A DNA stretch of 64,000 bases. It comes from an uncultured Chloroflexia bacterium. Lineage in GTDB: Bacteria; Chloroflexota; Chloroflexia; QHBQ01; JADMIH01. The position numbers were made by a program, and so were the translations under genes. This document shows, one piece after another, positions 6,134-64,000 of the stretch; the stretch's first letter is position 1, and each line of letters opens with the position of its first letter. The stretch spans positions 342,549 to 406,548 of the forward strand of contig CAWINE010000017.1 of NCBI GenBank assembly GCA_963837315.1. Direction: 5' to 3'. The notes beneath the pieces were generated by a model. That model ran no database searches and was not told where the DNA came from. It saw only the letters and a list, made by a program, of their open reading frames with translations.

Positions 6134-6150
6134 TATGTAGGAGAATTTCC

Positions 6151-6774
6151 ATGTTAGCCGGACATTACGGCCTGGCTGCTATCGTGAAGTCGCGGCAGCC
6201 ACAATTGCCGCTTTGGGCGTTGATGCTGTGCGTCGAGCTGCTCGACATAGCGTTTCTCGTGCTCTATTTCCTGGGCACCGAGAGCTACAAGGCGGTGCCA
6301 GGCACCGGGGGCGGATATGGCGAGAAGATATTCTCTGCAGACTACTCTCATTCGTTGGTGGGAGCGCTCGTCATCAGCCTGGTGGTGCTGGTCGTAGCCT
6401 GGATATTCTGGGGGCGTGCCAACGGGCTTGTTTTAGGCTCGGTGACTTTCTCCTCATGGATCCTTGATTTCGTCACACACAGGGGCGACCTGGCTATTAT
6501 GCCGGGCGACAGTGCCGGCTTGCATGTGGGGCTTGGCCTCTGGAGCATCCCATGGGCCGCCATTCTGCTGGAGCTTGCGATTGCACTGGTGGGCACCTAT
6601 CTTTATTACCACGCATCCATGCGCACCGCAGTGAGGCTGGAGAGGCAGCAAGGCAAGACTACCGGGGCTACAGCCACTACTCCAGCAGGCTACCGGCAGA
6701 GCGCGCTGGTCGCCACTCTTACGCTATTGGTATTGTTGGTAGGCACGCTGGCTGCGGATTTCCTGATCGCCTGA
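6151..6774 (+). CDS. Polytopic membrane protein of unknown function
   Basis: 207 aa with about 6 hydrophobic segments. GGAG RBS before the ATG. I did not recognise a family. Confidence 0.6.
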   Translation: MLAGHYGLAAIVKSRQPQLPLWALMLCVELLDIAFLVLYFLGTESYKAVPGTGGGYGEKIFSADYSHSLVGALVISLVVLVVAWIFWGRANGLVLGSVTFSSWILDFVTHRGDLAIMPGDSAGLHVGLGLWSIPWAAILLELAIALVGTYLYYHASMRTAVRLERQQGKTTGATATTPAGYRQSALVATLTLLVLLVGTLAADFLIA

Positions 6775-6795
6775 TCGAGATCCAGCAATATTCAT

Positions 6796-6845
6796 AAAAA
6801 GAGGCCGGCTGAGCGTCCGTGGTGCGCTCAGCCGGCCTCTTTTTA
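6796..6845. terminator. Bidirectional stem-loop terminator between convergent genes
   Basis: aaaaagaggccggctgagcg - loop - cgctcagccggcctcttttt, with A/T tracts on both sides. Confidence 0.8.
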
Positions 6846-6857
6846 TGCACCTACGTA

Positions 6858-9057: not shown

Positions 9058-9092
9058 TCTACTGGTAATAACTCATAACTCAGAGCTCGTCT

Positions 9093-9917
9093 TTACTCGT
9101 GCCCATTGGTTGAGTTGGGCTGTGCGGCAGTGGGGTGGGGTAGGGGAATGGAGTGGGTGTCCAGGCAAGGCTCGGCGTCGGGAAGGCCGTAGTCCTGATT
9201 GGCGGCGAATTCGTACGCTGCCGCCTGGGTGCCGCGCTGCTCCTGGCCTTCCATATGCACCTGCGAGCGCTGCTCGCGGTTCTCCCACTGCTGGGGGCCT
9301 TGAGATCGCTCGGATGGAAGCTGGTAGGTGGCATTGTAGGTCACCGAACGATATGCGTAGACGCCACGCACGTCACCATTCTGATGAGCTCCGTTCGGCT
9401 GGGCAGGGCGCAGATGTATGCTGGGGCCGGAAGGGGCATTACGGAAGATGCCGGGCAGAGACGTGATCTCGGTGAACTGGTCGGCAGCCTCTATCAGCTC
9501 GTTTGACGTGCTGATGCCGAACGAAATAACCTCGCAGCGCACGCCTTTCATCTGCACCGCCTCTACCAGGCGCACGAAATCGCCGTCACCGCTCACGATC
9601 ACCACCACATCCAGGTTCGCGGAGAGGAGCATGATGTCCACTGCCATCTCGATATCGAGGTTGGCCTTGATACGTCCGCCTTCGTACTTGTGTATGTCTT
9701 TACAGACAACCTTATAACCGTTAGCGCGCAGGAAATCTATGAATTTGCGCTGGTTGGGATTATCGGGATCGACGCCTGTGTAAGCGCACGCCCTGATAAG
9801 ATCGCGCCCTGCTACCGACAGGTCGAGCAGGCGACAGTAATTAACTTCCACCCCGGCGGACTTCGCCGAGTAAAAGAGATTTGACACGTCTACAAAGACG
9901 CCTATGTTTTGTGACAT
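9093..9917 (-). CDS. NYN-domain (LabA/DUF88-like, PIN-fold) protein with low-complexity C-terminus
   Basis: IGVFVDVSNLFYSA...ANLDIEMAVDIMLLS..VVVIVSGDGDFVRLVEAVQMKGVRCEV. Confidence 0.8.
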   Translation of the reverse strand: MSQNIGVFVDVSNLFYSAKSAGVEVNYCRLLDLSVAGRDLIRACAYTGVDPDNPNQRKFIDFLRANGYKVVCKDIHKYEGGRIKANLDIEMAVDIMLLSANLDVVVIVSGDGDFVRLVEAVQMKGVRCEVISFGISTSNELIEAADQFTEITSLPGIFRNAPSGPSIHLRPAQPNGAHQNGDVRGVYAYRSVTYNATYQLPSERSQGPQQWENREQRSQVHMEGQEQRGTQAAAYEFAANQDYGLPDAEPCLDTHSIPLPHPTAAQPNSTNGHE

Positions 9918-10287: not shown

Positions 10288-11178
10288 ATGATCAGGGTTC
10301 CTGACGAATTTGCCGTTACGACAATAGAGAGGGAAGGGGCCGCGGGACGCGAGTGGAATCGCTCGCTGCCACACCTGGTCGAGACTTCTATGCGACCGGT
10401 GGGACCTTGTCCTGGACGGGCCGGCAATGCATGGCTATCTCAGCCTGGTAGCCCCTGTGCGCCGGGGAGACGAATTGTGTGTGCTCAAAGTTTCCTGGAT
10501 CAGCGAGGCTGATACGGGACAGGCCGCCGCCCTCTCAGCCTGGGATGGGCGAGGCGCGGTTCGGCTGCTTAAGTCGGAGCCGTCCGATGGCGCGATGTTG
10601 TTAGAGCGACTGGATTTTAGCCGGTCGTTGAGCGACGTGCCAATCGGTGATGCTCTTACTATAGCCGGTCGCTTGCTCCGCCGCCTTGCGATAGATGCCC
10701 CGGACGGATTGCGTACTCTGCCTGCCTGGGCACCGATATTTCCTGTGGCCTGCCCGAGCGCTGGGAGCGATACGGTCGCCCGATGCCACGGCGTTGGCTC
10801 GACCATGCCCAGGAGCTGGCAATCCAGCTTGGAGGGGAGTGCGAAGCCAAGCTGCTGGTCAACTACGATCTTCATTATGGCAATGTGCTTGCGAGTTGGA
10901 GAGAGCCGTGGCTGGTTGTGGACCCGATGGTAGTGGTTGGCGATCTTGAGTTCGGTATCGCGCAACTCCTCTGGCGGCGGCTGGAAGATATCGAGGCTCA
11001 AGGCGGCCTGGACCGTTATTTCCGCGTTTTGACCGAGGCAGCCGCGCTGGAACCCGCTCTCGCCCGCGACTGGACGCTGGTGCGCTGCGTGGATTACTGG
11101 CTTTGGGGTCTGAGCGTCGGCCTCACTTATGACCCAGCCCGGTGCGAGCGAATCATCGAATGGCTTACTGCAGCTTGA
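10288..11178 (+). pseudogene. Aminoglycoside/streptomycin 6-phosphotransferase-like kinase, split over three frames
   Basis: ORFs 10288-10512, 10427-10933 and 10783-11178 together give an APH-type protein (AVRLLKSEPSDGAMLLERL..., LVNYDLHYGNVL, WLVVDPMVVVGDLEFG). Frame goes +1 near 10383, then -1 somewhere between ~10690 and 10790. Confidence 0.75.
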
Positions 11179-11193: not shown

Positions 11194-11381
11194 TGGATTA
11201 CGGTAACTCACCGCAGAGGCGCAGAGGGTACGCAGAGACGCAGAGTTACGCAGAGATTATTGTGGTTTGTGGATTACGGTACCTCATCACAGAGGCGCAG
11301 AGAATGTTATTGTTTCATTACTCTAAAAACTTAAATTACTCTCTGCGTAACTCTGCGTACTCTGCGCCTCTGCGGTGAGTT
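11194..11381. repeat. Large palindromic element built on CGCAGAG units, with partly duplicated left arm
   Basis: taactcaccgcagaggcgcagagggtacgcagagacgcagagttacgcagag ... ctctgcgtaactctgcgtactctgcgcctctgcggtgagtta. A second copy lies at 14546-14669. Confidence 0.9.
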
Positions 11382-11990: not shown

Positions 11991-14622
11991 CTCTCCACTC
12001 AACGCCCCCCACGGAACTGCTGCCGGCATTGTCCAGGCTCCCGCTTCCGAGGCCAGGGATACGGCCTGTGTTGATTTGCTGCGCGAGGCCACGGACGACA
12101 AACCGGGTATCGTCAACGTCAACCTGGATACGCAGAACAAAGTAATGTCCTTCGGATATATGCCTGAGCTTGTTGCTCAGCCCGACCTGGACAAAATCGC
12201 TCAGGAGCTTGCGCCGACCCTTCACCAGAGGATGGAGACCTGCACCCTACGCGTGGGGCACGTGGGTGGGCGCGCCTGCAAATCTTGCGCGCTCGGCCTT
12301 GAGAGGCGTATGAGCCGCGTTCCGGGCGTGCGGCACGCCTCCGCCAGCTATCTGGGAGGCGTACTGAGCGTCACATACGACGGCGCGCTCCTTTCACCCG
12401 GCGCAATTGCCGATCGAGTAAAAGAATACGGAGTGCCTCTGTTACCGGCGTCAGTTGACGAAGAGGATGCCGCACAGCCGCGCACGCTGCGGGCGCGCCT
12501 GCAAAGCCGGCTCACGACCGACAACCTGGCCGTAGTGCTCACAGTGATTACTCTCGTGTCGATGCTGTTGGCGTTAGGCATCGAAAAGATCGTGGGTGCC
12601 TCGGGCGAGGATGTAGCCACAGGCCTGTACGCGGTGGCTTATGTAGCGGGCGGCAGCTTCGCGCTGAGGAAAGGCGTCGAGGCGTTGTTGCACGGCGTCA
12701 TCGATATTGACTTGCTGATGGTGCTGGCGGCGCTGGGCGCGGCCTTTGTAGGGTCCTTTCTTGAGGGGGCAGTGCTGCTCTTCCTCTTCTCGTTCTCCAA
12801 CGTTTTGCAGGCTTACGCCATCGACAGGACGCGCAATGCCATCAGGGCGCTGATGAAACTGCGGCCCAAGCAGGCGTCGGTGCGACGCGGCGATACCACT
12901 GTTGTGTTGCCTATCGAGCGCGTGATGGTGGGCGACTGCATCGTCGTGAAGCCGGGGGACCGCGTGGCGCTGGACGGCATGGTGTCGGCAGGCGAGAGCA
13001 CCGTCGACCAATCCTCCATCACAGGCGAGTCGATGCCCGTGAGCAAGTGCCTGGGCGACACAGTATTCGCGGGCACCATCAACAAGAACGGCAGCCTCGA
13101 CGTAACGGTGAGCAAGCTGGCGAAGGACTCGACGTTAGCGCAGCTCATCAAAATGGTGGAGGAGGCACAGAGCGAGAAAGCCCAGACCCAGCGCTTCATA
13201 GACCGGTTCGAGCAGTTTTACGCGGTGGCTGTGATCCTGATAACCGCGCTGGCGATTGTGGTGCCGATATTCATCTTTGCCGAGGTATTCCATTCGGCCT
13301 TCTATCGCGCCATGACGATCATGGTGGCAATGTCTCCCTGCGCGCTTGTGATCAGCACGCCCGCCTCGATCCTATCAGGAATCGCCAACGGAGCGCGCCG
13401 TGGCGTGCTGTTCAAGGGAGGCGTCCACCTGGAACAGGCTGCCCTCATCAAAGTAGTTGCGTTCGACAAGACCGGCACCCTGACTGAGGGCAAGCCGAAG
13501 GTGACCGATGTGGTGGTGCTGGCGGCGGACGAAGGACGAAAGACGAAGGACGAAGGACGAACCACGGCCGACGAAAGCGAGATACCTTCGTCCTTCGTCC
13601 TTCGTCCTTCGTCGGTCGACCGCCCTTCGCCCATCCTCACAGCGAGCGACCTTCTTGCCCTGGCTGCCGCTGTGCAGAGTAAATCCGAGCACGCTCTGGC
13701 GCGGGCCACCTTGGCGGCGGCGGCTGAGCATGATACGCAGGTGTCTGAGGCATTCGCCTTCCAGGCGACTACGGGCAAGGGCGTTCGCGGCCTTGTGGAT
13801 GGTCGGGATATCAGGATAGGTAACCTGCGATATTACGAAGGGTTCAAGTGCATAGGAAGGGAAGAGGCCGAGTGCGAGGTGCTGCGGCTGGAGCACGAGG
13901 GCAAGACCAGCGTGATTGTGGGCGAACTGGGCGACGACGGCGAGACCGCCACCATGCTCGGCGTAATTGCGTTCGCAGACCTGTTGCGGCCCGAGGTGGC
14001 AAGCATCGTGCGCGCCATCAAGGCGGCGGGAGTTGAGCACGTAGTGATGCTAACAGGCGACAACCGCCACGCAGCCGAAGCCATCGCACGGCAGGCAGGA
14101 TTGGACGATTTCTACGCCGAGCTGCTGCCTGAGGACAAGGTGAGGGTAGTCAGAGAGATCGGTGAAAAGTATGGCCCCGTGGCGATGGTGGGTGACGGTG
14201 TGAACGATGCGCCCGCCCTGGCGACCGCCCGCCTGGGCATCGCGATGGGCGCGGCGGGCACCGACGTAGCTCTCGAGACAGCCGATGTGGTGCTAATGGG
14301 TGACGACTTGCGCCAGATCCCGTACCTGATCGCCCTCAGCAAGCAGACCCGTCGCACCCTCGTGACCAACATCGGCTTTGCGATGTTCATGATCTTCCTG
14401 ATGCTGTTGGGGATATTCGCGATACAGCTGCCCCTACCTGCGGCCGTAGTGGGCCACGAAGGGGGCACAGTGCTGGTGTCTCTCAACGGCCTGCGCCTTC
14501 TTGGGTATAAATACCGCCCATCAGAAAGCAATTACTGGGACGACCGTAACTCACCGCAGAGGCGCAGAGGACGCAGAGTTACGCAGAGATTTCTTTGGTT
14601 TTGTTACTCCTGCAAACATTAA
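11965..14622 (+). CDS. P1B-type heavy-metal translocating ATPase, SPC / HEGGT signature (P1B-4-like)
   Basis: DKTGTLT, TGES, GDGVNDAP, TM motif AMSPCALV, HEGGTVLVSLNG, and an N-terminal HMA-like CKSC. Start chosen at ATG 11965, because the ORF-track start at 11401 overlaps the fur gene. The last ~20 aa and the stop lie in the CGCAGAG element. Confidence 0.9.
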   Translation: MKEGAPVSNSPLNAPHGTAAGIVQAPASEARDTACVDLLREATDDKPGIVNVNLDTQNKVMSFGYMPELVAQPDLDKIAQELAPTLHQRMETCTLRVGHVGGRACKSCALGLERRMSRVPGVRHASASYLGGVLSVTYDGALLSPGAIADRVKEYGVPLLPASVDEEDAAQPRTLRARLQSRLTTDNLAVVLTVITLVSMLLALGIEKIVGASGEDVATGLYAVAYVAGGSFALRKGVEALLHGVIDIDLLMVLAALGAAFVGSFLEGAVLLFLFSFSNVLQAYAIDRTRNAIRALMKLRPKQASVRRGDTTVVLPIERVMVGDCIVVKPGDRVALDGMVSAGESTVDQSSITGESMPVSKCLGDTVFAGTINKNGSLDVTVSKLAKDSTLAQLIKMVEEAQSEKAQTQRFIDRFEQFYAVAVILITALAIVVPIFIFAEVFHSAFYRAMTIMVAMSPCALVISTPASILSGIANGARRGVLFKGGVHLEQAALIKVVAFDKTGTLTEGKPKVTDVVVLAADEGRKTKDEGRTTADESEIPSSFVLRPSSVDRPSPILTASDLLALAAAVQSKSEHALARATLAAAAEHDTQVSEAFAFQATTGKGVRGLVDGRDIRIGNLRYYEGFKCIGREEAECEVLRLEHEGKTSVIVGELGDDGETATMLGVIAFADLLRPEVASIVRAIKAAGVEHVVMLTGDNRHAAEAIARQAGLDDFYAELLPEDKVRVVREIGEKYGPVAMVGDGVNDAPALATARLGIAMGAAGTDVALETADVVLMGDDLRQIPYLIALSKQTRRTLVTNIGFAMFMIFLMLLGIFAIQLPLPAAVVGHEGGTVLVSLNGLRLLGYKYRPSESNYWDDRNSPQRRRGRRVTQRFLWFCYSCKH
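13528..13613. repeat. GACGAAG-heptamer hairpin element inserted in frame inside the ATPase coding sequence
   Basis: Left arm is gacgaag x5 (13528-13562). Right arm is cttcgtc x4 (13586-13613). It translates as DEGRKTKDEGRTTADESEIPSSFVLRPSSV, between the KPKVTDVVVL and SDLLALAAAVQSKSEH blocks of the nucleotide-binding domain. Confidence 0.85.
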
Positions 14623-14669
14623 ATAATCTCTGCGAAACTCTGCGTACTCTGTGCCTCTGCGGTGAGTTA
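14546..14669. repeat. Second copy of the CGCAGAG palindromic element
   Basis: gtaactcaccgcagaggcgcagaggacgcagagttacgcagag ... ctctgcgaaactctgcgtactctgtgcctctgcggtgagtta. It contains the ATPase stop codon. Confidence 0.9.
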
Positions 14670-17126: not shown

Positions 17127-17186
17127 CGCCCAATAAAAGAGCGAAGGTAGGGCCCGCGGGCCCTACCTTCGCTCTTTTATTGGGCG
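17127..17186. terminator. 60-nt perfect palindrome after the 609-aa gene
   Basis: cgcccaataaaagagcgaaggtagggcc-cgcg-ggccctaccttcgctcttttattgggcg. Confidence 0.75.
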
Positions 17187-19654: not shown

Positions 19655-19804
19655 GCTCTACTCCTTTGTGTTCTCGCGCTCATCGTCCGCTTTGCATATT
19701 ATTACAGAAGTTATGATGCTTACCTATTTTACAGTAAGACGTCTGGAAACACAAACAGATTCGCCACAGTTACAGTTCAGAGTTGGGCTGGAGGAACGGA
19801 TGTC

Positions 19805-19879
19805 GGGGCAGACCCACGTGTCTGCCCTGGTCGGATTAGAACTCCGTGCCCCACGAGGGCAGACACGTGGGTCTGCCCC
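19805..19879. repeat. Palindromic element with 24-bp perfect arms and CACGTG cores
   Basis: ggggcagacccacgtgtctgccct - 27 nt - agggcagacacgtgggtctgcccc. A second copy lies at 34683-34763. Confidence 0.9.
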
Positions 19880-20129
19880 TACAACCTTAATCTGAACGCT
19901 TACTCGCCACAGCCGGGCATCCCCACATAACACCGAACAGTAACGGAATGAACCACAAACCCTTATCATTCTCAGTGCGTTCCTTGTGCCCTTTGTGCCT
20001 TTGTGGTTCATTTCGTCAGGGGTCGTTGTGATTGCAGCTATGAGTGGGATATCAGGCCAACGGAATTGACAAGCAGGGGTGCCTCGGATAGAATGTGGCG
20101 ACTCCATCTTGTTCAGGAGCCTGGGCGGT

Positions 20130-20633: not shown

Positions 20634-20813
20634 GTTTTCACCGCCAAGACGCCAAGGTCAGCAAAGGTTCGCCAAGATACCTATTGGATTTAATCGATAT
20701 GATCCGATGATTCCAACCCGATAAAACCTTCGTGATCTTCGTGATCTTCGTGAATTCAAAACAATAAAAACCTTGGCGTCTTGGCGGTTAAGGTAATCCG
20801 CAATCCGCCAATC
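20634..20813. repeat. Degenerate or short copy of the mosaic element
   Basis: caccgccaagacgccaagg ... aaaaccttcgtgatcttcgtgatcttcgtga ... aaaaaccttggcgtcttggcgg, followed by aatccgcaatccgccaatcc. Confidence 0.75.
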
Positions 20814-22572: not shown

Positions 22573-22618
22573 GAAGCAAGCAGAAAGGTCGCCCGCGGGC
22601 GACCTTTCTGCTTGCTTC
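22573..22618. terminator. Perfect 46-nt palindrome terminator with GGTCGCCCGCGGGCGACC tip
   Basis: gaagcaagcagaaaggtcgcccgcgggcgacctttctgcttgcttc. Confidence 0.75.
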
Positions 22619-26124: not shown

Positions 26125-28161
26125 GTGGTGGTTAGGCGCTGCTTTCAGAATGTGAGGGTAGGCATAAACGGGCAATTAGTGAGTGATGAGTTGGACCAGG
26201 ACCATTTACGTTTTACGTTTTACGTTTTACGTTTTCGTCGTCACAAGGTAGCTCTCGTCGCTCTTCTGGTCATCGGTGTCCTTTATCTCGCCGGCCTGGT
26301 GGTAATGCCGCCGGATGCGCTGACTCACCACGATACCGGGGCCAAGTATCTGCAGGTTCGCAACCTGCGCATCACGCCCTCCGGGCTCGATTATTCCATC
26401 AATTATCCGGCCCGCCCCCTCGACCCCAATCTGCAATACGTACCGTTTCGGGATAAGCAGTTCTATATCGACGGGCACGAACATATCTATCTCCAGTGGC
26501 CGATCTTCCTGGGGCTGCTCACGCGTATTCCATGGAAAGTGCTCGGCTTCTGGGGACTCTATCTGGTGCCATTACTGGCCGGGCTGGGGGCGTGCTGGGC
26601 CACTTACCTGCTGGCCATGGCGGTGGGAGTGCCGAAGCGACTGGCCTGGGTGGCGATACCTTTGCTGGGGTTTGCTACTCCGGTGGCGATCTATTCGCTC
26701 CTCTTCTTCGAGCATACGCTGGCCGACATGCTGGTGGCGCTCAGTCTGCTCTTTGCACTGCTGGCTATTCCTCTGGAAAATAATCCTGAGAAGACCCTTA
26801 GGGTCTTCTCAGGATTATTTTCCAACAATGATAAGCGGAGAATGGCCGCCAGCGCCGTGCTGCTGGCAGTGGCGATCTACTTCAGGTCTGAGCTATACGT
26901 GCTGGCGGCGGTGATCGGGCTGACGCTGGTTGTCATGGCCTGGAGGGCGGCAGCATGGCGGCGGCTCTTAGCAGCCTGGGCAGTCGCGTTTGTGCTGGCG
27001 CTGGTGCCACTCTGGTCCTTCTACATGATCAGCGACGGAACGCTCCTTCCGCTGCACGCTATCTGGTATTTCGCTGGAAGCGAAGGCGCGAGCTTGCCGG
27101 GCGAGCCTGTGCAGTTTCAGCTTCCTGCCCTCCGCTATATCGTGCAGGCGGGTTGGGGCACCGTGCCGGACTTCCTGTTCGGGCCGCAAAGTTTCCCCTC
27201 ATCTCCCATCTACCCATTGTGGGCCGGAGCGGTTGGTCTCATCGGGACGTTACTGTGCGGAGTGTCGGCGCTCTTGAGGCTGGCTCGCGGCACGCTCGGC
27301 TCTATCAGAGTGAGATTGGCCATCTTCGCAATTGGGCTTGCCGGTGTAACTCTGACATCAGCCTATATCCTGCTGATGCCCCAGTATTACCACAACCTGC
27401 ATGGCTTTCTGCTGGCAAGCCCGTTCGTGGCGTTGGCTCTCTGGCCGCCCACAATTATTACAACTCGTGATGGGCTGACACGGCAAGGCTTTCTCTACGT
27501 GGTCACGCTGCTGCACGTGGGGCTTCATGCCCTCGTTATCAGCTCGTTGAGCGGGCTTGGACCGATCAGCAGGAGCGAATGGGGGCAGCGCTACCTGCTT
27601 GCGGCCTACCCGGCCCTCGTTGTGCTGGCTTTGCTTGCTGCCTGGCGCATCTGGACCGAGTACCGGCCTATGCTCGACCTCAGGCGGGTGGCGGCGTTTT
27701 CACTATCGTTCGGGACTGTGCTGATGCTGGTGGGCTTCTTTTTCACCCTGCGAGGCTACGGCGCTCTCTACGACGAGCGGACGCAGGTGAAATCGTGGCT
27801 CACCCTCTCAGAGAGCTTGCCCGACCGCGAGCCTCTCGTGACGGACGAGTGGTGGCTCCCCCTGAACCTGGCGGCGGACTTCTATACGCGTCCGATCATG
27901 CTCGCCGTAGGCGATGACAAGCTAATGCACTGGGCCAGCGATATGCGCACCCTGGGCGTAATGCAGTTCGGCTTCATGACCGACAAGCCGGCGACATTCA
28001 CGAGCGCCTGGTTATCCCACGTCCCAGGCCTCCGCGCCGACGGCCCGCCCATGGAAGTGCGAGGTATCTGGATGCAGAAGTATACGTTCGCAGGGCCATC
28101 TTCCACAGGCTCAACGCCACCAATCCGTGTGCCCGATCCACTTAGCCCCAAGCAACACTAG
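26125..28161 (+). CDS. Large polytopic membrane protein, GT-C (ArnT/PMT-like) glycosyltransferase candidate
   Basis: 678 aa with more than 12 hydrophobic segments. The start is uncertain (GTG 26179 or TTG 26191 are also possible). Residues LRFTFYVLRFRR are encoded by an ACGTTTT heptamer array at 26205-26235. Confidence 0.6.
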   Translation: MVVRRCFQNVRVGINGQLVSDELDQDHLRFTFYVLRFRRHKVALVALLVIGVLYLAGLVVMPPDALTHHDTGAKYLQVRNLRITPSGLDYSINYPARPLDPNLQYVPFRDKQFYIDGHEHIYLQWPIFLGLLTRIPWKVLGFWGLYLVPLLAGLGACWATYLLAMAVGVPKRLAWVAIPLLGFATPVAIYSLLFFEHTLADMLVALSLLFALLAIPLENNPEKTLRVFSGLFSNNDKRRMAASAVLLAVAIYFRSELYVLAAVIGLTLVVMAWRAAAWRRLLAAWAVAFVLALVPLWSFYMISDGTLLPLHAIWYFAGSEGASLPGEPVQFQLPALRYIVQAGWGTVPDFLFGPQSFPSSPIYPLWAGAVGLIGTLLCGVSALLRLARGTLGSIRVRLAIFAIGLAGVTLTSAYILLMPQYYHNLHGFLLASPFVALALWPPTIITTRDGLTRQGFLYVVTLLHVGLHALVISSLSGLGPISRSEWGQRYLLAAYPALVVLALLAAWRIWTEYRPMLDLRRVAAFSLSFGTVLMLVGFFFTLRGYGALYDERTQVKSWLTLSESLPDREPLVTDEWWLPLNLAADFYTRPIMLAVGDDKLMHWASDMRTLGVMQFGFMTDKPATFTSAWLSHVPGLRADGPPMEVRGIWMQKYTFAGPSSTGSTPPIRVPDPLSPKQH

Positions 28162-29413: not shown

Positions 29414-29560
29414 AAGCCAAGACGACGGTTGTCAGTTGTCGGTTGTCAGTTGTCAGTTGACCGGAGCTATCAGCTATCAGCTATCAGCCGGCCTTCGCTC
29501 TTCGTCCATCGTCCGTCGTCCGTCTACTGACAACTGACAACTGACAACTGACAACTACGT
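29414..29560. repeat. Short form of the mosaic element (outer arms only, with CAGCTAT units in the centre)
   Basis: gccaagacgacg, gttgtca x4, gagctatcagctatcagctatcagcc, cttcgtccatcgtccgtcgtccgtctactgacaa, ctgacaa x4. Confidence 0.9.
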
Positions 29561-30369: not shown

Positions 30370-30379
30370 TTTGGACCGA

Positions 30380-30747
30380 GTTGTCAGTTGTCAGCAGACG
30401 GGCGATGGACGATGGACGACCGTCAGTGTAAAACGTAAGAGGTAAAACGTGAAACGTAACCGCCAAGACGCCAAGTTCCGCCAAGGGCCGCCAAGGTTTC
30501 TATCGTTTTAACCATAATAACCTCTGTGATCTCTGTGTTCTCCGTGCGCTCTGTGATTTAAACCCATAATAACCTTCGTGGTCTTCGTGACCTTCGTGAT
30601 CTTCGTGTTAAAACCCATAGAAACCTTCGTGATCTTTGTGTCTTTGTGGTTCAAACCGTAAAAACCTTGGCGTCTTGGCGTTGAAAAATACCGTCGCCGG
30701 TCGTCTACTGACAATAGTTCGCTTCGCTCATCAACTGACAACTGACA
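30380..30747. repeat. Mosaic intergenic element, full-length reference copy
   Basis: All modules are present in order, from GTTGTCA x2 to CTGACAA x2 (see the first finding). It fills the whole gap between two genes. Confidence 0.9.
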
Positions 30748-32372: not shown

Positions 32373-32382
32373 GGCTGACGGA

Positions 32383-32665
32383 GTTGTCAGTTGTCAGTTG
32401 ACCGGCGACCGAGGACGAAACGTAAAACGTAAAACGTAAGACGTAACCGCCAAGACGCAAGAACCTCTAAGGTCGCCAAGGCTTCTATGTGTTCTAGACC
32501 AACAAATCCTCTGTGATCTCTGTGGTCTGTGTAATTCAACCATAATAACTTCGTGATCTTCGTGATCTTCGTGATCTTCGTGATTAAAAAGCCGATAGCT
32601 GATAACTACCGTCTACTGACAAATAGTGCGCTTCGCTCATCAACTGACAACCTGGTCCGACAACT
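32383..32665. repeat. Mosaic intergenic element, intermediate-length copy
   Basis: gttgtca x2, cgtaaaa x3, ccgccaagacg, ctctgtgatctctgtgg, cttcgtgat x4, ccgtctactgacaaatagtgcgcttcgctcatcaactgacaac. Confidence 0.9.
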
Positions 32666-33864: not shown

Positions 33865-33924
33865 TTAGCTATGGAAGAGAAATGAGGTCGCCTTAAGGCG
33901 ACCTCATTTCTCTTCCATAGCTAA
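33865..33924. terminator. 60-nt perfect palindrome between convergent genes
   Basis: ttagctatggaagagaaatgaggtcgcc-ttaa-ggcgacctcatttctcttccatagctaa. Confidence 0.8.
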
Positions 33925-34539: not shown

Positions 34540-34682
34540 AGAGTTAGGCGCCTCCTATGGACATACTTATATGCACCCATATTCTAATGCATAAGCTTGA
34601 CAGAAAAGATAGTTTGAGGGTTTGTGAATCTGCACCTGAGTGCTTGACCATGAGGCCGATGGCAAGCGTGATGTAGGGGCAG

Positions 34683-34763
34683 ACCCACGTGTCTGCCCTG
34701 GTCGGGTAGAGATTCTGCGCCCCACGAGGGCAGACACGTGGGTCTGCCCCTACCCCCTTTCTT
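34683..34763. repeat. Second copy of the CACGTG palindromic element
   Basis: gtaggggcagacccacgtgtctgccct - 27 nt - agggcagacacgtgggtctgcccctac. Confidence 0.9.
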
Positions 34764-43120: not shown

Positions 43121-43166
43121 AGTGGAGTTCTAGTTGGGTTCTGAGTTCTGAGGCGAGAGGGCTAAC

Positions 43167-43757
43167 TCATGACTCCCGAAGAGCAGTGCTCTTTGGGTCT
43201 GTCTCGGGCTCCTGGGGAGTGGGCAGGGTGGTGTCCATGGGAGGGACCGTGGTGGCCTCCGGCAGAGCAGGCTCGCTTGTCTTGCCGAACAAGAGGCCGA
43301 CCAGAATAAGTATCACACCCACGGTGATGGCGCTGTCGGCTGTGTTAAATACGGGGAATGTATAGACCGTATTATTGAGCGTCAGTTGCGGCCTGTATAC
43401 TTCGATGAAATCTCGCACGTAGCCAAGGCTGATGCGGTCCGCGAAGTTGCCGAGCGCGCCGCCTATTACCAGCCCCGCGGCCAGCACCGACAGCGAAGAA
43501 GGGTTGCCCAACCGCACGAATGCGACGACTATACCCGTTATCACCACCACCGACACGATGCTGAGGATACCTGTGGCGTCGGAGAAGATGCCGAATGCCG
43601 CACCCGTGTTCTGAGTATAGCGGAGGCGTATATAACCCTCAATTATGGGGCTAGTCTGTCCAAGCTCCAGGCTGCTTGAAATCCAGAGCTTGGTAAGCTG
43701 GTCCAGTACCAGCACCACCAGCGCCGCCAGGGACATCAGGATGAAACTTCGTTTCAT
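43167..43757 (-). CDS. lspA: Lipoprotein signal peptidase II
   Basis: NTGAAFG, FPVFNTADSAITVG, four TM segments. Confidence 0.9.
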   Translation of the reverse strand: MKRSFILMSLAALVVLVLDQLTKLWISSSLELGQTSPIIEGYIRLRYTQNTGAAFGIFSDATGILSIVSVVVITGIVVAFVRLGNPSSLSVLAAGLVIGGALGNFADRISLGYVRDFIEVYRPQLTLNNTVYTFPVFNTADSAITVGVILILVGLLFGKTSEPALPEATTVPPMDTTLPTPQEPETDPKSTALRES

Positions 43758-43825
43758 AATTACGAATTACGAATTACGAATTACGAATTTACGAATTGCC
43801 AACCTTTCATTCGTAATTCGTAATT
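43758..43825. repeat. TTACGAA-heptamer hairpin (same unit as 1347-1419)
   Basis: aattacgaattacgaattacgaattacgaatttacgaatt - gccaacctttc - attcgtaattcgtaatt. Confidence 0.9.
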
Positions 43826-43833
43826 CAAGTAAT

Positions 43834-44226
43834 TTATAGCTTCCCTCTGTCTGCCAGTTGCTGGCAATCTATGTCATAGATGGACGAGGGGCGGGCTTCG
43901 AGGCGGGCAGGGTTGATCGGTTTGCCGCAGTTGGCGCAGGTGCCGTATGTGCCGGCTTTGATCCGGGCCAGGGCTGTGTTGATCTGGTCGATCTCGCGCT
44001 GGGCATTCTGCTGTAATGAGAGCATCGTCTCTTGCTCTGCGGTTTCGTTGGCATCGTCGGCCATGTGGTTGCCGATTCCGCCGCGCTCCGGCACAAGGTC
44101 GTCGCCGTCCTCGGCTACCTGCTTTTCTTTAATCTGAACGTCGCGCAGCAGTTGCGCTTTCATCTTGAGAAGCCGTTCTCTGGCCACTTCCACGTCAATG
44201 GATACTACGTCACTGTCGCTATCCAT
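43834..44226 (-). CDS. DksA/TraR-family C4 zinc-finger protein
   Basis: ALARIKAGTYGTCANCGKPINPARLEARP. Confidence 0.85.
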   Translation of the reverse strand: MDSDSDVVSIDVEVARERLLKMKAQLLRDVQIKEKQVAEDGDDLVPERGGIGNHMADDANETAEQETMLSLQQNAQREIDQINTALARIKAGTYGTCANCGKPINPARLEARPSSIYDIDCQQLADRGKL

Positions 44227-44239
44227 GTATTTCTCCTGT

Positions 44240-44305
44240 TTAGAAGTTAGAAATTAGAAATTAGAAGTTAGAACCAAATCTAACTTCTAATTTCTAATTT
44301 CTAAT
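44240..44305. repeat. TTAGAAR-heptamer hairpin
   Basis: ttagaagttagaaattagaaattagaagttagaa - ccaaa - tctaacttctaatttctaatttctaat. Confidence 0.9.
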
Positions 44306-44343
44306 ATCAATTTTCTGACTTATAATCCTCTGATTATACCACA

Positions 44344-46134: not shown

Positions 46135-46296
46135 ATGGCCTCCTGTTAGTTGTCATAACATCCTAGCGCCGATTATAGATGCAGGATCAGCCGAAGTCAA
46201 AATCACCTGACGGCAGATGTGGATTGCCATCCCTTTGTTCTGTTTATTTGCCCCGTATTGAAGTAACGTGCGAAGTCGTGCCAGGTAGCGTGGCCG

Positions 46297-46583
46297 GTTG
46301 TCAGTTGTCAGTAGAACAGTAACCGCCAAGACGCCAAGTTCCGCCAAGGTCGCCAAGGTTTTCATTGTTTAAGCCCATCAAATCCATAAGCGAAGTAGTT
46401 CGCTCATCTCTGATCTACTGTGCACTCTCTACTCATGAGAAGGGTGCCCTCTGGGCTGCGAGCTCTGATTCAAACCCATAAAAACCTTCGTGATCTTCGT
46501 GCTCTTCGTGCTCTTCGTGATTTAAAACCTGATAGCTGATAGCCGATAAGCTACCTGACAACTGACAACTGACAACTGACAAC
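46297..46583. repeat. Mosaic intergenic element with a divergent ~100-nt central insert
   Basis: gttgtca x2, ccgccaagacgccaag..., unique centre 46375-46470, aaacccataaaaaccttcgtgat units, gatagctgatagcc, ctgacaa x4. Confidence 0.85.
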
Positions 46584-46629
46584 TTGGTCATACGAACTAA
46601 GGCCAGGACAAACTAGGCCAAAAGACCGA

Positions 46630-46671
46630 TTGACAAATTACGTAACTATGTTATATATTAGCTAAGCTAAT
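46630..46671 (+). promoter_or_regulatory. marR promoter with palindromic operator candidate
   Basis: TTGACA (46630-46635), 16-17-nt spacer, TATATA/ATATAT, followed by ATTAGC-taa-GCTAAT (46657-46671). Confidence 0.5.
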
Positions 46672-46746
46672 TATTTCTTGCCGGCAACGATGAAAAGATT
46701 GGCTGCGAAGAAACAGGGATTTATGGCTCGATGAAGAGCCGAAGAA

Positions 46747-49192: not shown

Positions 49193-49230
49193 GACGAAGG
49201 ACGAAGGCAGAAATGCCTTCGTCCTTCGTC
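49193..49230. terminator. GACGAAG-unit hairpin after the MFS gene
   Basis: gacgaaggacgaaggc-agaaat-gccttcgtccttcgtc. Confidence 0.7.
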
Positions 49231-50996: not shown

Positions 50997-51032
50997 GGAA
51001 GGACGAAGGTAGTTGGCCTTCGTCCTTCGTCC
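50997..51032. terminator. GACGAAG-unit hairpin between the paralogs
   Basis: ggaaggacgaagg-tagtt-ggccttcgtccttcgtcc. Confidence 0.65.
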
Positions 51033-51106
51033 TCGCCACCGCATTTCTTAGGTTATACTATCAGCCGGTAGCTAAAGCACCCCAAAACTCGGCATGGAGA
51101 ACAACG

Positions 51107-52778: not shown

Positions 52779-52838
52779 CGGACGAAGGACGAAAGACGAA
52801 GGACGAAGGCTAACCTTCGTCTTTCGTCTTTCGTCCGT
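52779..52838. terminator. GACGAAG-unit hairpin between convergent genes
   Basis: acggacgaaggacgaaagacgaaggacgaagg-ctaa-ccttcgtctttcgtctttcgtccgt. Confidence 0.75.
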
Positions 52839-53479: not shown

Positions 53480-53519
53480 CGTATCCAGGTCCTTTCAGGG
53501 CATTATACCAGACCTGTTT

Positions 53520-53576
53520 ATTCAGTCATTTAGAAGAGATGGACGCGCCGCGTCCATCTCTTCTAAATGACTGAAT
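53520..53576. repeat. 57-nt perfect palindrome in a divergent promoter region
   Basis: attcagtcatttagaagagatggacgcg-c-cgcgtccatctcttctaaatgactgaat. It lies between the minus-strand TPR gene start (53479) and the plus-strand gene start (53725). Confidence 0.8.
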
Positions 53577-53724
53577 ACTTATCTTTGATTGGACGCAGCG
53601 CAGGCAAAATCAAAAGCAGTACGCAGCACGTTGTCGTACCAAAGTCCCAGTGCTATGACCACCTAATAGGCTATTGTTGGGAGGGGTACCGGTTGGTAGG
53701 ATTATTATCGGAGGTATTCCATTT

Positions 53725-55050: not shown

Positions 55051-55055
55051 ATAGT

Positions 55056-55111
55056 ATGTCACCAAAAGCAAAAAGGTCGCCCGCGGGCGACCTTTTTGCT
55101 TTTGGTGACAT
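55056..55111. terminator. Perfect palindrome terminator with GGTCGCCCGCGGGCGACC tip
   Basis: atgtcaccaaaagcaaaaaggtcgcccgcgggcgacctttttgcttttggtgacat. Confidence 0.8.
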
Positions 55112-55263
55112 AGAAGTGCTTCCCACGCCTTACAGATTGTAGAGTTCCTGGTAAAGAAAGTAGATATTTATCCTCTTTCATGGGCGAAGCAAACCGGTAG
55201 CTCCGGCCACCGGCTTGCCTTAGGGACAATTCTACTTCAATCTGAATCGGGAAGTTTGATTCC

Positions 55264-56112: not shown

Positions 56113-56184
56113 GAATTTAGAATTCCGAATTTTGAATTCTGAGTTAATCGGTTAACTCAGAATTCAAAATTACGAATTATAAAT
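56113..56184. repeat. AT-rich GAATTYN-unit hairpin abutting the rny stop codon
   Basis: gaatttagaattccgaattttgaattctgagttaa-tcg-gttaactcagaattcaaaattacgaattataaatt. Confidence 0.85.
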
Positions 56185-57750: not shown

Positions 57751-58005
57751 AAGACACCTCCCTATTCTGTTTTTAAGGTACGTCGTTGGACGTGGTAGTA
57801 CGTTGTTTTTCGGGAGGACTACATAACCTCCCGTTCGGATTTGCCTGTGCAAGACCTTCGATACTTTTGGAGTATCGAGCAGTCCAGGTTACAGGCGTAG
57901 TTTATCTAACAGCATAGCCGCAAGGCTAATTTGTATAACTTGTATGATACAGGCGGAACGGTCTACCTGTCAAGGTCTTTACAAGAAAGTTTCGTTGGAA
58001 GCCGT

Positions 58006-58034
58006 TTGCAAACCCTGGGCGTATTTGTTATAAT
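58006..58034 (+). promoter_or_regulatory. Promoter of the tRNA cluster
   Basis: TTGCAA, 17-nt spacer, TATAAT, ~22 nt upstream of the first tRNA. Confidence 0.6.
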
Positions 58035-58132: not shown

Positions 58133-58172
58133 CACGAGCCGACCTAAAAGGTTGGCCCTTTTTTTAGCAAGT

Positions 58173-58261: not shown

Positions 58262-58348
58262 AAACGAATGCGGAATGTGGAATTCGGAATGCGGAATAGC
58301 ATTTCCGTTCCACATATCAATTCCGAACTCCGCATTCCACATTCCGCA
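58262..58348. repeat. GAATGYG-unit hairpin in the spacer between the two tRNA-Ser genes
   Basis: cgaatgcggaatgtggaattcggaatgcggaat-agcatttccgttccacatatc-aattccgaactccgcattccacattccg. Confidence 0.85.
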
Positions 58349-58352
58349 ATGT

Positions 58353-58440
58353 GGAGAGGTCGCCTAGAGGCCTAGGGCGCTCGCCTGGAAAGCGGGTACG
58401 GGGAAACTCGTCGTGGGTTCGAATCCCACCCTCTCCGCCA
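58353..58440 (+). tRNA. tRNA-Ser, anticodon GGA, CCA encoded
   Basis: GGAGAGG-TC-GCCT AGAGGCCTA GGGC-G-CTCGC CTGGAAA GCGGG-variable arm-GTGGG TTCGAAT CCCAC-CCTCTCC-G-CCA. Confidence 0.85.
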
Positions 58441-58499
58441 ACGAAATCAGGCTCTTGATTTGCGATCAATATCATCGCAAATCAAGAGCCTGATTTCGT
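58441..58499. terminator. Long perfect hairpin between the tRNA cluster and the convergent RIO kinase gene
   Basis: acgaaatcaggctcttgatttgcgat-caatat-catcgcaaatcaagagcctgatttcgt. Confidence 0.8.
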
Positions 58500-59456
58500 T
58501 TACTGGTCGTCGAGCGTGATGTTGCGCGACCACATCTCCTGCGCCAGCTTTTCAGCGTTCGCCTCGATGCCGTACTTTGAGAAGTACTGGCAGACGCGGG
58601 TGACATCTCGCAGGAAGATTTCGTAGCCGTACGGGTTCACGTCGGGGTTGACCGCCTGCGGGAAGTCTATTATCTTCACCTCTCCTTCCCAGTAGAGGAT
58701 ATTGTGCGCCGACAGGTCGCCATGGATGCGGTTGTTTGCCAGCATCAGGTCTATGTTGTGCATAAGGCGGTCGAAGAGCGGACGAGCCTCTTTCTTGCTC
58801 ACAGTGACGTTCTGGAGCACTGGAGCCGGCCAATCGACGTCGCCAAAGTAGTCCATCAGAATAGCATGGTCGTTGCTGGCATATACACGTGGCACGTCGG
58901 CTCCCGCCTCATAAAGCAGGCTCAGCGTGGCGACCTCCGTGCCGAGCCAGTTCGATTGGCGCAGCTCCTGGCCGAAGCGCGTCTTGTTCTCCATCGCCCT
59001 GGCCTCGCGGCTCCCCACGCGCTTGCCCTCTTCGTTGAGCACCGTCCGGCCCATCCGGTAGAGCGAATCGTTGCGCAGGTTGCGGAAGATGCGCGGGCGG
59101 TAGAGCTTCGCCGCCAGTAGATCGACGCCAATTACCGGGTCGGCCCGGCAGCAGTAGACTGTGGCCTCCTTGCCGCCTTTCACAGGCTTCAGCACGTCCA
59201 GGATAAGGTGCTCCTCGTAGAAGCCGCTCAGATAGAGCAGTATCCACTCGCGCTCGTGCCGAGATACGTTGAACTTTTCGGCAGATTTGGAGCCGAACGA
59301 TGGGTCGAAGCCCGCCTTTGTGTCGTCGCTCTGCTCGACCAGCTCGGCCACGATGTCGGCGCGGCTTCGTTTCGGTTTCGCCCTGGGTTTGTATTTTACC
59401 GTAGCCATATCCGTATATTCTTCTAGTTCGTCCTCATAATTCCATCTGGTAGGCAT
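58500..59456 (-). CDS. RIO-type serine protein kinase
   Basis: KGGKEATVYCC, HGDLSAHNILYWEGEVKIIDFPQAV. Confidence 0.85.
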   Translation of the reverse strand: MPTRWNYEDELEEYTDMATVKYKPRAKPKRSRADIVAELVEQSDDTKAGFDPSFGSKSAEKFNVSRHEREWILLYLSGFYEEHLILDVLKPVKGGKEATVYCCRADPVIGVDLLAAKLYRPRIFRNLRNDSLYRMGRTVLNEEGKRVGSREARAMENKTRFGQELRQSNWLGTEVATLSLLYEAGADVPRVYASNDHAILMDYFGDVDWPAPVLQNVTVSKKEARPLFDRLMHNIDLMLANNRIHGDLSAHNILYWEGEVKIIDFPQAVNPDVNPYGYEIFLRDVTRVCQYFSKYGIEANAEKLAQEMWSRNITLDDQ

Positions 59457-62265: not shown

Positions 62266-62694
62266 ATGGAGAACAGCCAATATTCAAGTGAATACTCCGC
62301 GGGTGGGGTGGTCTACAGGCACAACGGCGCGCAAAGCGAAGTCGCCCTGATCTACCGCAATCGCCACGACGATTGGTCCCTTCCCAAGGGGCATATCGAG
62401 GCGGGCGAAAGTCGAGAGCAGGCAGCCCTCCGCGAAATAAAAGAAGAGACCGGCCTCGACGTTAGCATAGTGCGCCCGCTCGGAGAAGCCGTCTACTTCT
62501 TCAGAAAGAGGGGCGGCGATCTTGTTCGCAAGACCGTCTACCATTACCTAATGGAAGCTCTCACCACCGAGCTTGGCAAGCCTAACTGGGAAGTGACCGA
62601 AGCCCGCTGGGTCCCCATCACTGAGGCCCGGAGCTTGCTAAGCTATGAAAAAGATCGCGAGATGATAGGCAAGGCAATTGATGTTTTACGATAG
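62266..62694 (+). CDS. NUDIX hydrolase
   Basis: [28 protein letters not shown] Nudix box. Confidence 0.9.
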
Positions 62695-64000
62695 CGCAAA
62701 AATCTGGGTGAAAGCCGGTAACGGCGGCGACGGAAGCGCCTCGTTTCGGCGCGAGAAGTTTATACCGAAAGGCGGGCCGGACGGCGGGGACGGTGGGCGC
62801 GGCGGCAGCGTCTATCTACGCGTCAACCCCGACCTGAACACGCTCCTGACTTTCCACTACCAGCAGCATTTCAAGGCGCAGCACGGCGGTGCAGGAGCGT
62901 CCAACCAGAAGCATGGCAAGGCGGCTCCCGACCTCTATATCGATGTGCCGCCAGGCACTTTTGTAGAGATTCTGGACGAAAAGCCGCTATCAGGTGCTGC
63001 CGCCGAGATCGTACAGGCCGACCTCGTGCGCCCGGGCGACACGCTAATGGTGGCGCGGGCCGGGCGAGGCGGGCTGGGCAACACCCATTTCAAAACCTCT
63101 ACCCAGCAGGCCCCCAGGTTCGCCGAGAAAGGCGAGCCTGGACAAGAGCGCACAATAGTGATGGAGCTGAAGGTGATAGCCGACGTGGGCATCGTGGGCT
63201 ACCCCAACGTGGGCAAGTCCACCCTGCTGTCGGTGGTAAGCGCGGCTCAGCCCAAAATCGCCGATTACCCCTTCACCACCCTCCAGCCTATGCTGGGCGT
63301 GGTCAGCGTAGACGACTATACGTTCGTGATGGCCGACATTCCAGGCCTGATCGAAGGGGCCAGCGGCGGTGCCGGCCTTGGCCTCGAATTCCTGCGCCAC
63401 GTCGAACGGACTCGCCTCCTCGTACACATGGTAGATGGCTCGGCAGGATTGTGGAATCCCGAATGGGGAGTCCAGGAGGAAGAGAACGACAGATGCAGAC
63501 CAATCCGCAATCCGCAATCCGCAATCCGCAATCGAATCATCCTGCGCAGACCACCGACCCCATTGCCGATTTCAAGCGCATCAACGCGGAGCTGGAGCAG
63601 TACGACTCCGAGCTTGCAGCCAAGCCGCAGGTTATCGCCATCAACAAAGTAGATTTGCAGGAAGTGCGAGACCGCCTGCCGTCGCTCATCAAGCAGTTCC
63701 ACGACCTGGGCTATGACGAGGTTTACCCCATCTCGGCAGCTACGGGCCAGGGAGTGCAAGAGCTGATGGGCGTGGTCGCCGCGAAATTACGCGAGCTGCC
63801 GAAGCCTGCATGGCAAGAAGAGCCGGAAGAAGTTTCTGCAGAAGATGTTATCGTGAAGCCGCGCCATATCGCATCCGAGTCTCGAGCGGTTCGAGATCGT
63901 GCGCGAAGGTAAGCACCACTTCCGCGTGGTCGGCGACAGAGTGGAGCGAATGGTCACAATGACCGATATGAGCAACCCGTTCGCCCTCGACCGGATGCAG
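62681..64000 (+). pseudogene. obg: GTPase Obg/CgtA, interrupted by a repeat insertion and two frame changes; 3' end beyond the window
   Basis: N-terminus [46 protein letters not shown], then G-domain [24 protein letters not shown] (frame A). [38 protein letters not shown] is in frame A-1 (ORF 63451-63912). The OCT domain ERFEIVREGKHHFRVVGDRVERMVTMTD is back in frame A from ~63884. Confidence 0.85.
63443..63555. repeat. AATCCGC-heptamer element inserted inside obg
   Basis: ~113 nt lie between ...HMVDGS and DPIADF. The core is aatccgc x4 at 63502-63529, preceded by a degenerate complementary arm ggattgtggaatcccgaatgggg. The length is not a multiple of 3. Confidence 0.8.

Follow-up and report, generated by a model that had tools for sequence, protein, structure and literature searches.

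This analysis asks why so many gene boundaries in a stretch of DNA from an uncultured Chloroflexia bacterium carry a hairpin whose two arms are tandem arrays of a 7-nt unit and its complement, and why the unit (hereafter called the word) differs between loci while the design stays the same. The window, i.e., the whole stretch analyzed, comprises 64,000 nt (positions 342,549 to 406,548 of contig CAWINE010000017.1, assembly GCA_963837315.1) and includes a small dksA/traR-type gene enclosed by two hairpins of different words. On balance the arrays are probably heptanucleotide arrays of the short tandemly repeated repetitive (STRR) type, which arose by slippage and by symmetrization of palindromes and which act as stem-loops in transcripts and not as intrinsic terminators.

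Heptanucleotide arrays and hairpins in the window

Perfect period-7 arrays, counted when they comprised at least two units plus one base (at least 15 nt), numbered 42 in the window as compared to 0.89 ± 0.96 (maximum 4) in 100 dinucleotide-preserving shuffles, and the same count for periods of 8 to 10 nt yielded 0–5 arrays. Dozens of period-7 arrays across the window were likewise listed by Tandem Repeats Finder, which together with our own scans recovered the arrays that an earlier reading of the sequence alone (the original prediction) had reported. Head-to-tail repetition of 7-nt units far above chance, the defining trait of STRR sequences, is thus found here. Arrays of at least 2.5 units had a density of 4.5 per 10 kb in the window and 0.04 per 10 kb in controls, an approximately 100-fold difference. 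The controls were 80 unrelated genome loci (1.4 Mb in total) fetched as RNase Y neighborhoods in a scan of genome representatives, in which the best match had 65% identity, and they served also as a check on distant Chloroflexota. Arrays occur throughout the lineage, namely in the related contigs L081–L085, L092, L094, L096, and L110, and period-7 arrays were absent from the more distant Chloroflexota and from the other phyla represented by the 80 control loci. Perfect palindromes with arms of at least 16 nt were also enriched (2.0 per 10 kb in the window and 0.32 in the controls, approximately sixfold), and about half of them were heptameric.

Of the 1,170 canonical words that are possible, the 42 arrays use 16, and seven of these recur at separate loci of the window: AACTGAC at seven loci, AAGGACG and AAAACGT at four each, and AATTACG, AATCCGC, AACTCAG, and AGCTATC at two each. 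Since 35 of the 42 arrays lie in the non-coding part (approximately 21% of the window), the dispersed, mostly non-coding distribution with several unit families per genome that is known of STRR sequences was found as well.

Folding confirmed ten of the loci named in the original prediction as true two-armed heptamer hairpins (beginning at 1347, 5009, 13527, 43758, 44240, 49193, 50997, 52780, 56113, and 58266), with predicted energies from -23 to -60 kcal/mol and z-scores from -5.4 to -11, and none of 200 shuffles was equally stable. Two of the ten enclose the dksA/traR-type zinc-finger gene (43834–44226, minus strand; Pfam PF01258, zf-dskA_traR, E-value 1.9e-10), which is bracketed by different words just as had been proposed. 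The TTAGAAR hairpin (44240–44305, minus strand; approximately 4–5 units per arm, 6-nt loop, -35.8 kcal/mol, z -11) is assigned to the predicted 5' leader of dksA because it lies between a conserved extended -10 element, TGTGGTATAAT (44333–44343, minus strand), whose consensus suggests a putative promoter upstream of the leader hairpin, and the AGGAG Shine-Dalgarno sequence and ATG of dksA (44224–44237, minus strand), 3 nt past the 3' arm. The AATTACG hairpin (43758–43826, minus strand; z -6.1) begins 7 nt past the dksA stop codon, has unequal arms of 2.5 and 5 units in the mRNA sense, and ends with its 3' arm at the ATG (43757) of lspA, the signal peptidase II gene (43167–43757, minus strand; Pfam PF01252), which has no Shine-Dalgarno sequence and whose start codon directly abuts the hairpin.

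An ATTGCGG hairpin (5009–5079, plus strand; z -7) is placed in a similar manner: it begins 2 nt past the stop codon of a KH/YlqC-like open reading frame (ORF; 4780–5007), and the rimM ATG (5075) sits in the base of its 3' arm, in the interior of the rpsP-rimM operon. The second AATTACG hairpin (1347–1419, plus strand; four perfect units per arm, z -10) lies 46 nt upstream of an amidohydrolase gene. The GACGAAG word forms hairpins 19 nt past the stop codon of an MFS transporter gene (49193–49230, plus strand; two units per arm) and 18 nt past a stop codon between co-directional genes (50997–51033, plus strand), and a GACGAAR hairpin (52780–52835) occupies a 60-nt convergent spacer, 2 nt from either stop codon. 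A degenerate GAATTNN hairpin (56113–56184, minus strand) begins immediately at the end of the RNase Y stop codon, and a GAATGYG hairpin (58266–58345, plus strand) fills the gap between tRNA-Ser(CGA) and tRNA-Ser(GGA). The remaining hairpin (GACGAAR; 13527–13613, plus strand; 87 nt) lies in frame within a gene for a heavy-metal ATPase of the P1B type. It falls in the variable linker that follows the DKTGTLT phosphorylation motif and encodes approximately 36 extra residues (ADEGRKTKDEGR...SSFVLRPSS; 13513–13635) that are missing from the PDB homologue 7qbz. Orthologues were sought in order to date this intragenic hairpin, and no homologue above 58% identity was found, the linker being variable throughout.

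Hairpin ends lie 0–20 nt from the nearest stop or start codon, and all hairpins lie outside -35/-10 spacers. According to a rough gene map, arrays are present in 15 of 32 co-directional, one of eight convergent, and two of eight divergent spacers, although the divergent ones are long. A T-tract 3' of the stem was not found at any hairpin, and a terminator scan of 42–59 kb flagged none of them except for a spurious inner stem (52802–52821). The hairpins are not ordinary Rho-independent terminators because U-tracts are missing, because they lie mostly in co-directional spacers, often exactly from stop to start codon, and because one is situated between tRNA genes; several lie inside operons or leaders. 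Termination ahead of rimM and lspA, or in the gap separating neighboring tRNA genes, would presumably be counter-productive. That the hairpins might be ordinary terminators with no excess of period-7 structure, or confined to the window, had been named beforehand as grounds for giving up the idea; neither is the case, since hairpins of this kind occur in relatives also.

Canonical palindromic terminators with T-runs are present separately at convergent gene ends of the same window. Long perfect palindromes of unique sequence were found at 17127–17186, 22573–22618, 26774–26824, 33865–33924, 53519–53577, 55055–55112 (CAAAAAGGTCGCCCG|CGGGCGACCTTTTTG), and 58440–58500, the last following the tRNA operon. 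Their arms measure 23–30 nt with spacers of 0–7 nt, often with flanking A/T runs; several, not all, lie in convergent or end-of-operon spacers, and some resemble bidirectional terminators. Spacer-less palindromes of this sort are unstable in Escherichia coli. The tRNA-Arg and tRNA-Ser genes look like one operon with a putative promoter at 58005–58034, and a small G+C hairpin followed by a T-run (GCCGACCTAAAAGGTTGGC CCTTTTTTT) is located at 58138–58156, between tRNA-Arg and the first tRNA-Ser gene.

Orthologous sites, shared words, and composite elements

Homologues of DksA and their contigs, covering approximately 60–99% DksA identity, provided an orthologous series for both hairpins of the dksA locus. 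The amino acid identity to the DksA of the window was 99% in L081, 94% in L082, 85% in L083, 81% in L088, 78% in L084, 74% in L085 and L092, and approximately 60% in L094 and L095; identity at third codon positions was 0.84–0.85 for L081 and L082. Covariation in the alignment of the leaders was uninformative column by column owing to the ambiguous repeat register, and per-sequence folds and direct reading were used instead.

At the dksA-lspA site the word is AATTACG in the window, AATTTTT in L081, and GAGTTAT in L082, replaced in every unit of both arms between identical flanks. AATTACG is used also in L083, L092, and L094, where unit numbers and arm balance vary and the hairpin of L083 is nearly one-armed. 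The units are degenerate in L088 and L095, and L085, in place of the arrays of closer relatives, has a single AATTACG...CGTAATT pair around a G+C stem. In every case the 3' arm extends as far as the lspA ATG and ends there. No clean empty dksA site was found among relatives down to 74% DksA identity, as a hairpin or a recognizable remnant was present each time. In L082 the word GAGTTAT appears both in the dksA-lspA hairpin and in the lspA-rluD spacer 600 nt away (10389–10460 and 11040–11075), which hints at possible conversion between nearby arrays.

The leader hairpin is kept in L081, L082, L083, and L088, and more distant relatives have a small stem or none. Its word is TTAGAAR in the window, L082, and L083, TGAGAAA in L081, and AAGAAAT in L088, and in the distant relatives TTAGGGG/CCCTAAT (L094) and GCGTAAG (L095) were found. 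The hairpin of L085 is interrupted by a G-rich insertion of approximately 350 nt. Repeated G-rich/C-rich elements (GGGGTGCAGGGG...GTCCCC...) are also present in the dksA spacers of L084 (3765–4077 and 4468–4616) and L085 (2130–2633). The -10 region upstream reads TGGTATAAT in nearly all relatives, down to 60% DksA identity (TGTGGTATAAT in most of them, also with TGTGG in most), and only GCTATAAT in L093.

The hairpins at 49193 and 52780 have counterparts in L082 that differ in unit number and have mirrored variant units, the one 3' of the MFS gene having 2+2 units in the window and 2 and approximately 4.5 in L082. Because orthologous sites keep the hairpin while words and unit numbers change, position and architecture are, to judge from the sequences compared, far more stable than sequence.

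Four of the loci that had been reported as two-armed are one-armed direct arrays without an inverted partner (20792–20813, 63502–63529, 9012–9045, and 43125–43160). They include an AGTTCTG array (9020–9048), a TCAGAAC array in the lspA-rluD spacer (43138–43152, minus strand), and a (CAATCCG)4.7 array within a variable loop of obg (63501–63533, plus strand). The obg gene of the closest relative, L210 (85–89% amino acid identity), has CAATCCGCAATCG, 1.9 units, at the same place and in frame, and the two arrays (4.7 and 1.9 units) differ by exactly 14 nt (two units). This comparison shows a resident seed expanded by whole units, i.e., growth in place. The window obg gene for the GTPase (62678–63912) is divided between two reading frames at the array, and one unit more or two fewer would restore the frame. 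The split may reflect an error of assembly or consensus calling or heterogeneity of the population, or the frame of this essential gene may really be shifted. In phase-variable simple sequence repeats (contingency loci) a changed unit number switches a reading frame or a promoter spacing; the out-of-frame obg array may resemble these unless it is an artefact of assembly, whereas the hairpins lie outside promoter spacers. Arrays of this sort can disrupt reading frames in assemblies and mislead gene callers.

In the IMG/VR database eight stretches with two-armed AATTACG hairpins were found. One of them, L124 (IMGVR_UViG_3300020045_012626), is a real phage contig with genes for terminase, portal, HNH endonuclease, and endolysin and a G+C content of 54.5%. 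It has 12 AATTACG arrays or hairpins in approximately eight spacers (3640–9120), uses essentially only this word, and carries one AATTACG hairpin in frame inside its phrog_286 gene (5920–5995). The GACGAAG hairpin was found in one viral contig, and the TTAGAAA hairpin had no matches in IMG/VR. Three tandem copies of ACTGACA occurred in 58 viral stretches (35–70% G+C), as compared to 7 and 16 for two composition-matched control words, i.e., four to eight times more often.

Because a small word set recurs across loci, genomes, and phages, the words also spread or are constrained, and slippage alone is insufficient to account for the shared set. The generative process that the original prediction had put forward is accordingly half right. 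Local generation of units is borne out by the obg array, by orthologous hairpins that vary in unit number and arm balance, and by the change of word in both arms. The further step from different words to the absence of any spread of sequence does not hold, given the 16 words used, the seven that recur, the reuse of window words by relatives at non-orthologous sites, and the presence of AATTACG in phages; nor was there evidence for a dedicated enzyme, the other mechanism that had been considered.

Other repeated elements of the window are more complex. Two CGCAGAG loci that had been listed among the heptamer hairpins are copies of a composite palindromic element of related design, with irregular 8–10 nt spacing and no heptamer array: one upstream of the heavy-metal ATPase gene (11194–11381) and a second at its 3' end (14546–14669; 45-nt arms, 93% complementary). 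Both copies open with TAACTCACCGCAGAGGCGCAGAGG and close with its complement, and the pair around the ATPase gene could mark a cassette. Mosaic elements (3662–3999, 5865–6134, 29428–29556, 30379–30747, 32382–32604, and 46297–46584) consist of outer inverted (AGTTGTC)n/(ACTGACA)n arrays around blocks of 7-, 8-, and 9-mers (CTTCGTGAT, CGCCAAGG, ACGTTTT) and a common non-repeat core, and their (ACTGACA)n arm stops 9–17 nt ahead of the next start codon. In the divergent GH18/MarR spacer, the flanks of which are well conserved, the window (46135–46746) has a 300-nt mosaic element and L082 (7584–8089) an unrelated composite of the same design in other words (TAGGGGC×3.7, GACCGAC×9.5, TGACCCC×6, CCCCTAG×3.7). 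A REP-like imperfect palindrome of another kind (GGGGCAGACCCACGTGTCTGCCC..., arms 34–37 nt) is present in two copies (19798–19886 and 34673–34753).

Origin and role of the hairpins

The explanation that we favor combines the following steps. At the ten or so hairpins, where an array faces its own reverse complement, the transcript and the single-stranded DNA would fold into a long, near-perfect stem-loop. Replication slippage would add or remove 7-nt units in place. A change in one arm would be mirrored in its partner by fold-back template switching (quasipalindrome correction), because pairing is selected for, or in both ways, so that units and arms change together. The shared word set might be kept small by conversion that now and then takes place between arrays, or by limits on the words that can be used. 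Stems located in transcribed spacers (5' leaders, intercistronic gaps, 3' ends) may stabilize, protect, process, or punctuate transcripts, and the hairpins that span exactly from stop to start codon (dksA-lspA and ylqC-rimM) would bring both codons together and could couple the translation of a downstream gene without a Shine-Dalgarno sequence.

Quasipalindrome correction is established in E. coli. The mirrored variant units and the even distribution of G·U pairs over the strands are compatible with it, although pairing selection would likewise give mirrored changes. Across the 22 hairpins of known orientation, 37 G·U pairs were counted on the sense and 46 on the antisense strand, and folding energies were alike on both strands. 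The arms are thus Watson-Crick palindromes without G·U strand bias, which fits DNA-level symmetrization by template switching.

Several points weigh against this explanation. The lack of strand bias neither supports nor refutes an RNA role and is no positive sign of RNA-level selection. Transcript stabilization and translational coupling are suggested by position alone. Slippage and symmetrization alone explain neither the closed word set, with its reuse at non-orthologous loci and in phages, nor why one site has retained AATTACG in relatives with as little as 60% DksA identity. A role in untranslated regions does not apply to the hairpins within the ATPase gene and the phage phrog_286 gene or to the obg array, all three of which lie within coding sequence, and the period of seven is not accounted for.

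The alternative that survives best, although we consider it rather unlikely, is that the hairpins are a neutral mutational by-product, i.e., that slippage arrays and template-switch palindromes accumulate wherever they are tolerated and function neither as RNA nor as DNA. The in-frame copies in the ATPase, obg, and phage genes agree with this, as do the even distribution of G·U pairs, the loss or decay of arms in L083, L084, and L088, and the abundance of long perfect non-repeat palindromes in the window. Mere tolerance would, however, not lead one to expect a hairpin kept at both dksA sites down to 60% protein identity despite turnover of its sequence, boundaries exactly at stop and start codons, a preference for co-directional over longer divergent spacers, or arrays in most spacers of a compact phage genome.

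Distinctly unlikely, in our view, is word-specific recognition, in which the heptamers, at least AATTACG and ACTGACA, would be repeated sites bound in trans by a host protein or RNA and phages would copy them in order to use or evade this factor. The closed word set with its seven recurrent members speaks for it, together with AATTACG being kept at dksA-lspA in L083, L092, and L094 and being the only word in approximately eight spacers of phage L124; so do the four- to eightfold excess of ACTGACA×3 in IMG/VR and the ending of (ACTGACA)n shortly before start codons, like that of the TAACTGA repeats of Beggiatoaceae (PMC4679880). Yet at dksA-lspA the word was replaced in L081 and L082 with retention of the hairpin, so that no particular word is required at this site. 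A candidate binding protein is not known, nor was one seen in the window, and a word that is double-stranded within a hairpin is ill-suited to single-strand RNA binders. In a broader form, to which we give little credence, each word of a vocabulary shared by a Chloroflexota clade and its phages would have a dedicated factor that reads it in trans or a dedicated activity that generates the repeats and so writes it. The stop-to-start hairpins would then constitute a lineage-wide post-transcriptional control, for instance by translational coupling or by shunting across looped-out spacers, and would be more than a mutational curiosity.

A very improbable alternative is that the hairpins are miniature mobile elements copied by a transposase, similar to miniature inverted-repeat transposable elements (MITEs) or to repetitive extragenic palindromic (REP) sequences and REPINs, with the heptamer structure being incidental. 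Mobility could account for the same words at several loci and in several genomes, for hairpins in frame inside coding genes, and for the exchange of quite different elements between the conserved flanks of the GH18/MarR spacer, and genuine families of several copies that share non-repeat cores are represented by the mosaic and CGCAGAG elements. Copies of one heptamer word, in contrast, have no common loop, flank, or target-site duplication, and words differ by locus where REP/REPIN families have one palindromic sequence in all copies. A Pfam search of the approximately 57 ORFs of the window found no transposase, including the IS200/IS605-like REP-associated tyrosine transposases (RAYT), and the obg array grew from a resident seed of 1.9 units. 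For the simple hairpins a MITE origin was rejected on the lack of duplicated flanks and of clean empty orthologous sites in close relatives. That they are ordinary Rho-independent terminators, incidentally repetitive, is extremely improbable even though their stems are very stable and those at 49193, 50997, 52780, and 56113 lie close behind stop codons, since they lack U-tracts, were not flagged apart from the spurious sub-stem, occupy positions such as the rpsP-rimM operon, the dksA leader, the lspA start codon, and the tRNA gap, and coexist with canonical terminators of different design.

The main interest of the hairpins lies in the unusually clean comparative series that this lineage offers, i.e., the same two sites around one small gene at 60–100% protein identity, together with the expansion from seed to array in an essential gene, the exact stop-start bridging, and the same hairpin word in phages. 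This series makes an old puzzle of heptamer repeats testable with metagenomes, metatranscriptomes, and reporter constructs, namely whether the hairpins originate by slippage and palindrome correction, whether they stabilize or couple transcripts, and whether the identity of the word matters.

Comparison with known repeat systems

The host of the window is a member of the Chloroflexota and not a filamentous or heterocystous cyanobacterium, the group from which STRR sequences were originally described, as indicated by the large bacterial signal recognition particle RNA (RF01854), by RNase Y, and by the nearest named proteins, which belong to metagenome-assembled genomes of Chloroflexota, Chloroflexia, and Anaerolineae. 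The window further encodes three tRNAs, SpoVS, rpsP-rimM, obg, lspA-rluD, and other housekeeping functions, and with a G+C content of 58% it was aptly called high-GC in a relative sense only. The original prediction had not recognized arm-symmetric heptamers in a high-GC genome as described, a claim of novelty that is overstated in view of published STRR hairpins (PMC2670836), inverted Xanthomonas arrays (PMC4692102), and Chloroflexus satellites (PMC6749651). Xanthomonas would itself fall under the high-GC criterion. According to earlier reports, no intergenic tandem repeat is more abundant in prokaryotes than tandem heptamers, for which no function is known (bioRxiv 10.1101/309039; PMC4692102). 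The phage-shared vocabulary of several words, the two-arm word switches, the exact stop-to-start bridging, and the obg case of a seed grown into an array were not found in the literature examined.

Genomes of Xanthomonas are fairly rich in G+C. In these, the heptamer GGGAATC is likewise over-represented between genes, some of its arrays are inverted pairs that can form stem-loops, and related species have most arrays at conserved sites, flanked by the same genes but extensively variable in length and sequence (PMC4692102). That system has essentially one G-rich word with G-quadruplex potential and occasional hairpins, whereas here at least 16 words, mostly not G-rich, are used and the hairpin is a major arrangement. 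Within the same phylum, Chloroflexus aurantiacus (56.7% G+C) has 22 satellites derived from (GATAGRA)n, i.e., heptamer-derived tandem repeats scattered over the genome (PMC6749651). These are direct satellites of one dominant word, for which no hairpin arrangement or gene-boundary analysis was reported (PMC6749651), and the lineage of the window is only distantly related (best RNase Y match among genome representatives 65%).

Direct TAACTGA repeats are known from marine Beggiatoaceae, Cyanobacteria, and Bacteroidetes and lie just upstream of start codons in Beggiatoaceae (PMC4679880). The commonest word of the window, CAACTGA (equivalent to ACTGACA), is one base apart from it, and its arrays also point at start codons and end a few nt before them. 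The TAACTGA repeats are nearly all direct, with one inverted among 170 sets (PMC4679880), whereas the word here forms outer inverted arms of composite elements as well. The REP sequences of enterobacteria and pseudomonads, including bacterial interspersed mosaic elements (BIMEs) and REPINs, resemble the hairpins as abundant intergenic palindromes within and at the ends of operons, and they are thought to stabilize upstream mRNA (PMC3116915), as the window hairpins may do. They are, however, fixed sequences of 20–40 nt spread by RAYT, in contrast to tandem 7-mers of no fixed sequence that grow in place.

The closest counterpart are the cyanobacterial STRR sequences, for which we relied on PMC2670836 and compared the cyanobacterial sequences by description. 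Hairpin arrays of 7-bp STRR units between hupS and hupL are "not unusual in filamentous cyanobacteria" (Anabaena, Nostoc, Lyngbya) and were proposed to raise transcript stability or to couple translation (PMC2670836), the same roles that are proposed here. As in the window, tandem heptanucleotides of several words per genome are dispersed between genes, and inverted arrays form a stem-loop between co-transcribed genes whose sequence varies among relatives while the structure is kept (PMC2670836); the corresponding positions in the window are dksA-lspA, ylqC-rimM, and the gap between the two tRNA-Ser genes. The words differ, and in the Chloroflexota hairpins, in addition, both arms switch words in concert, stop and start codons are bridged exactly, copies occur in frame inside genes, and a word is held in common with phages. 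Repeats of this kind had been described before in cyanobacteria, Xanthomonas, and Chloroflexus; the lineage in which they are described here is new.

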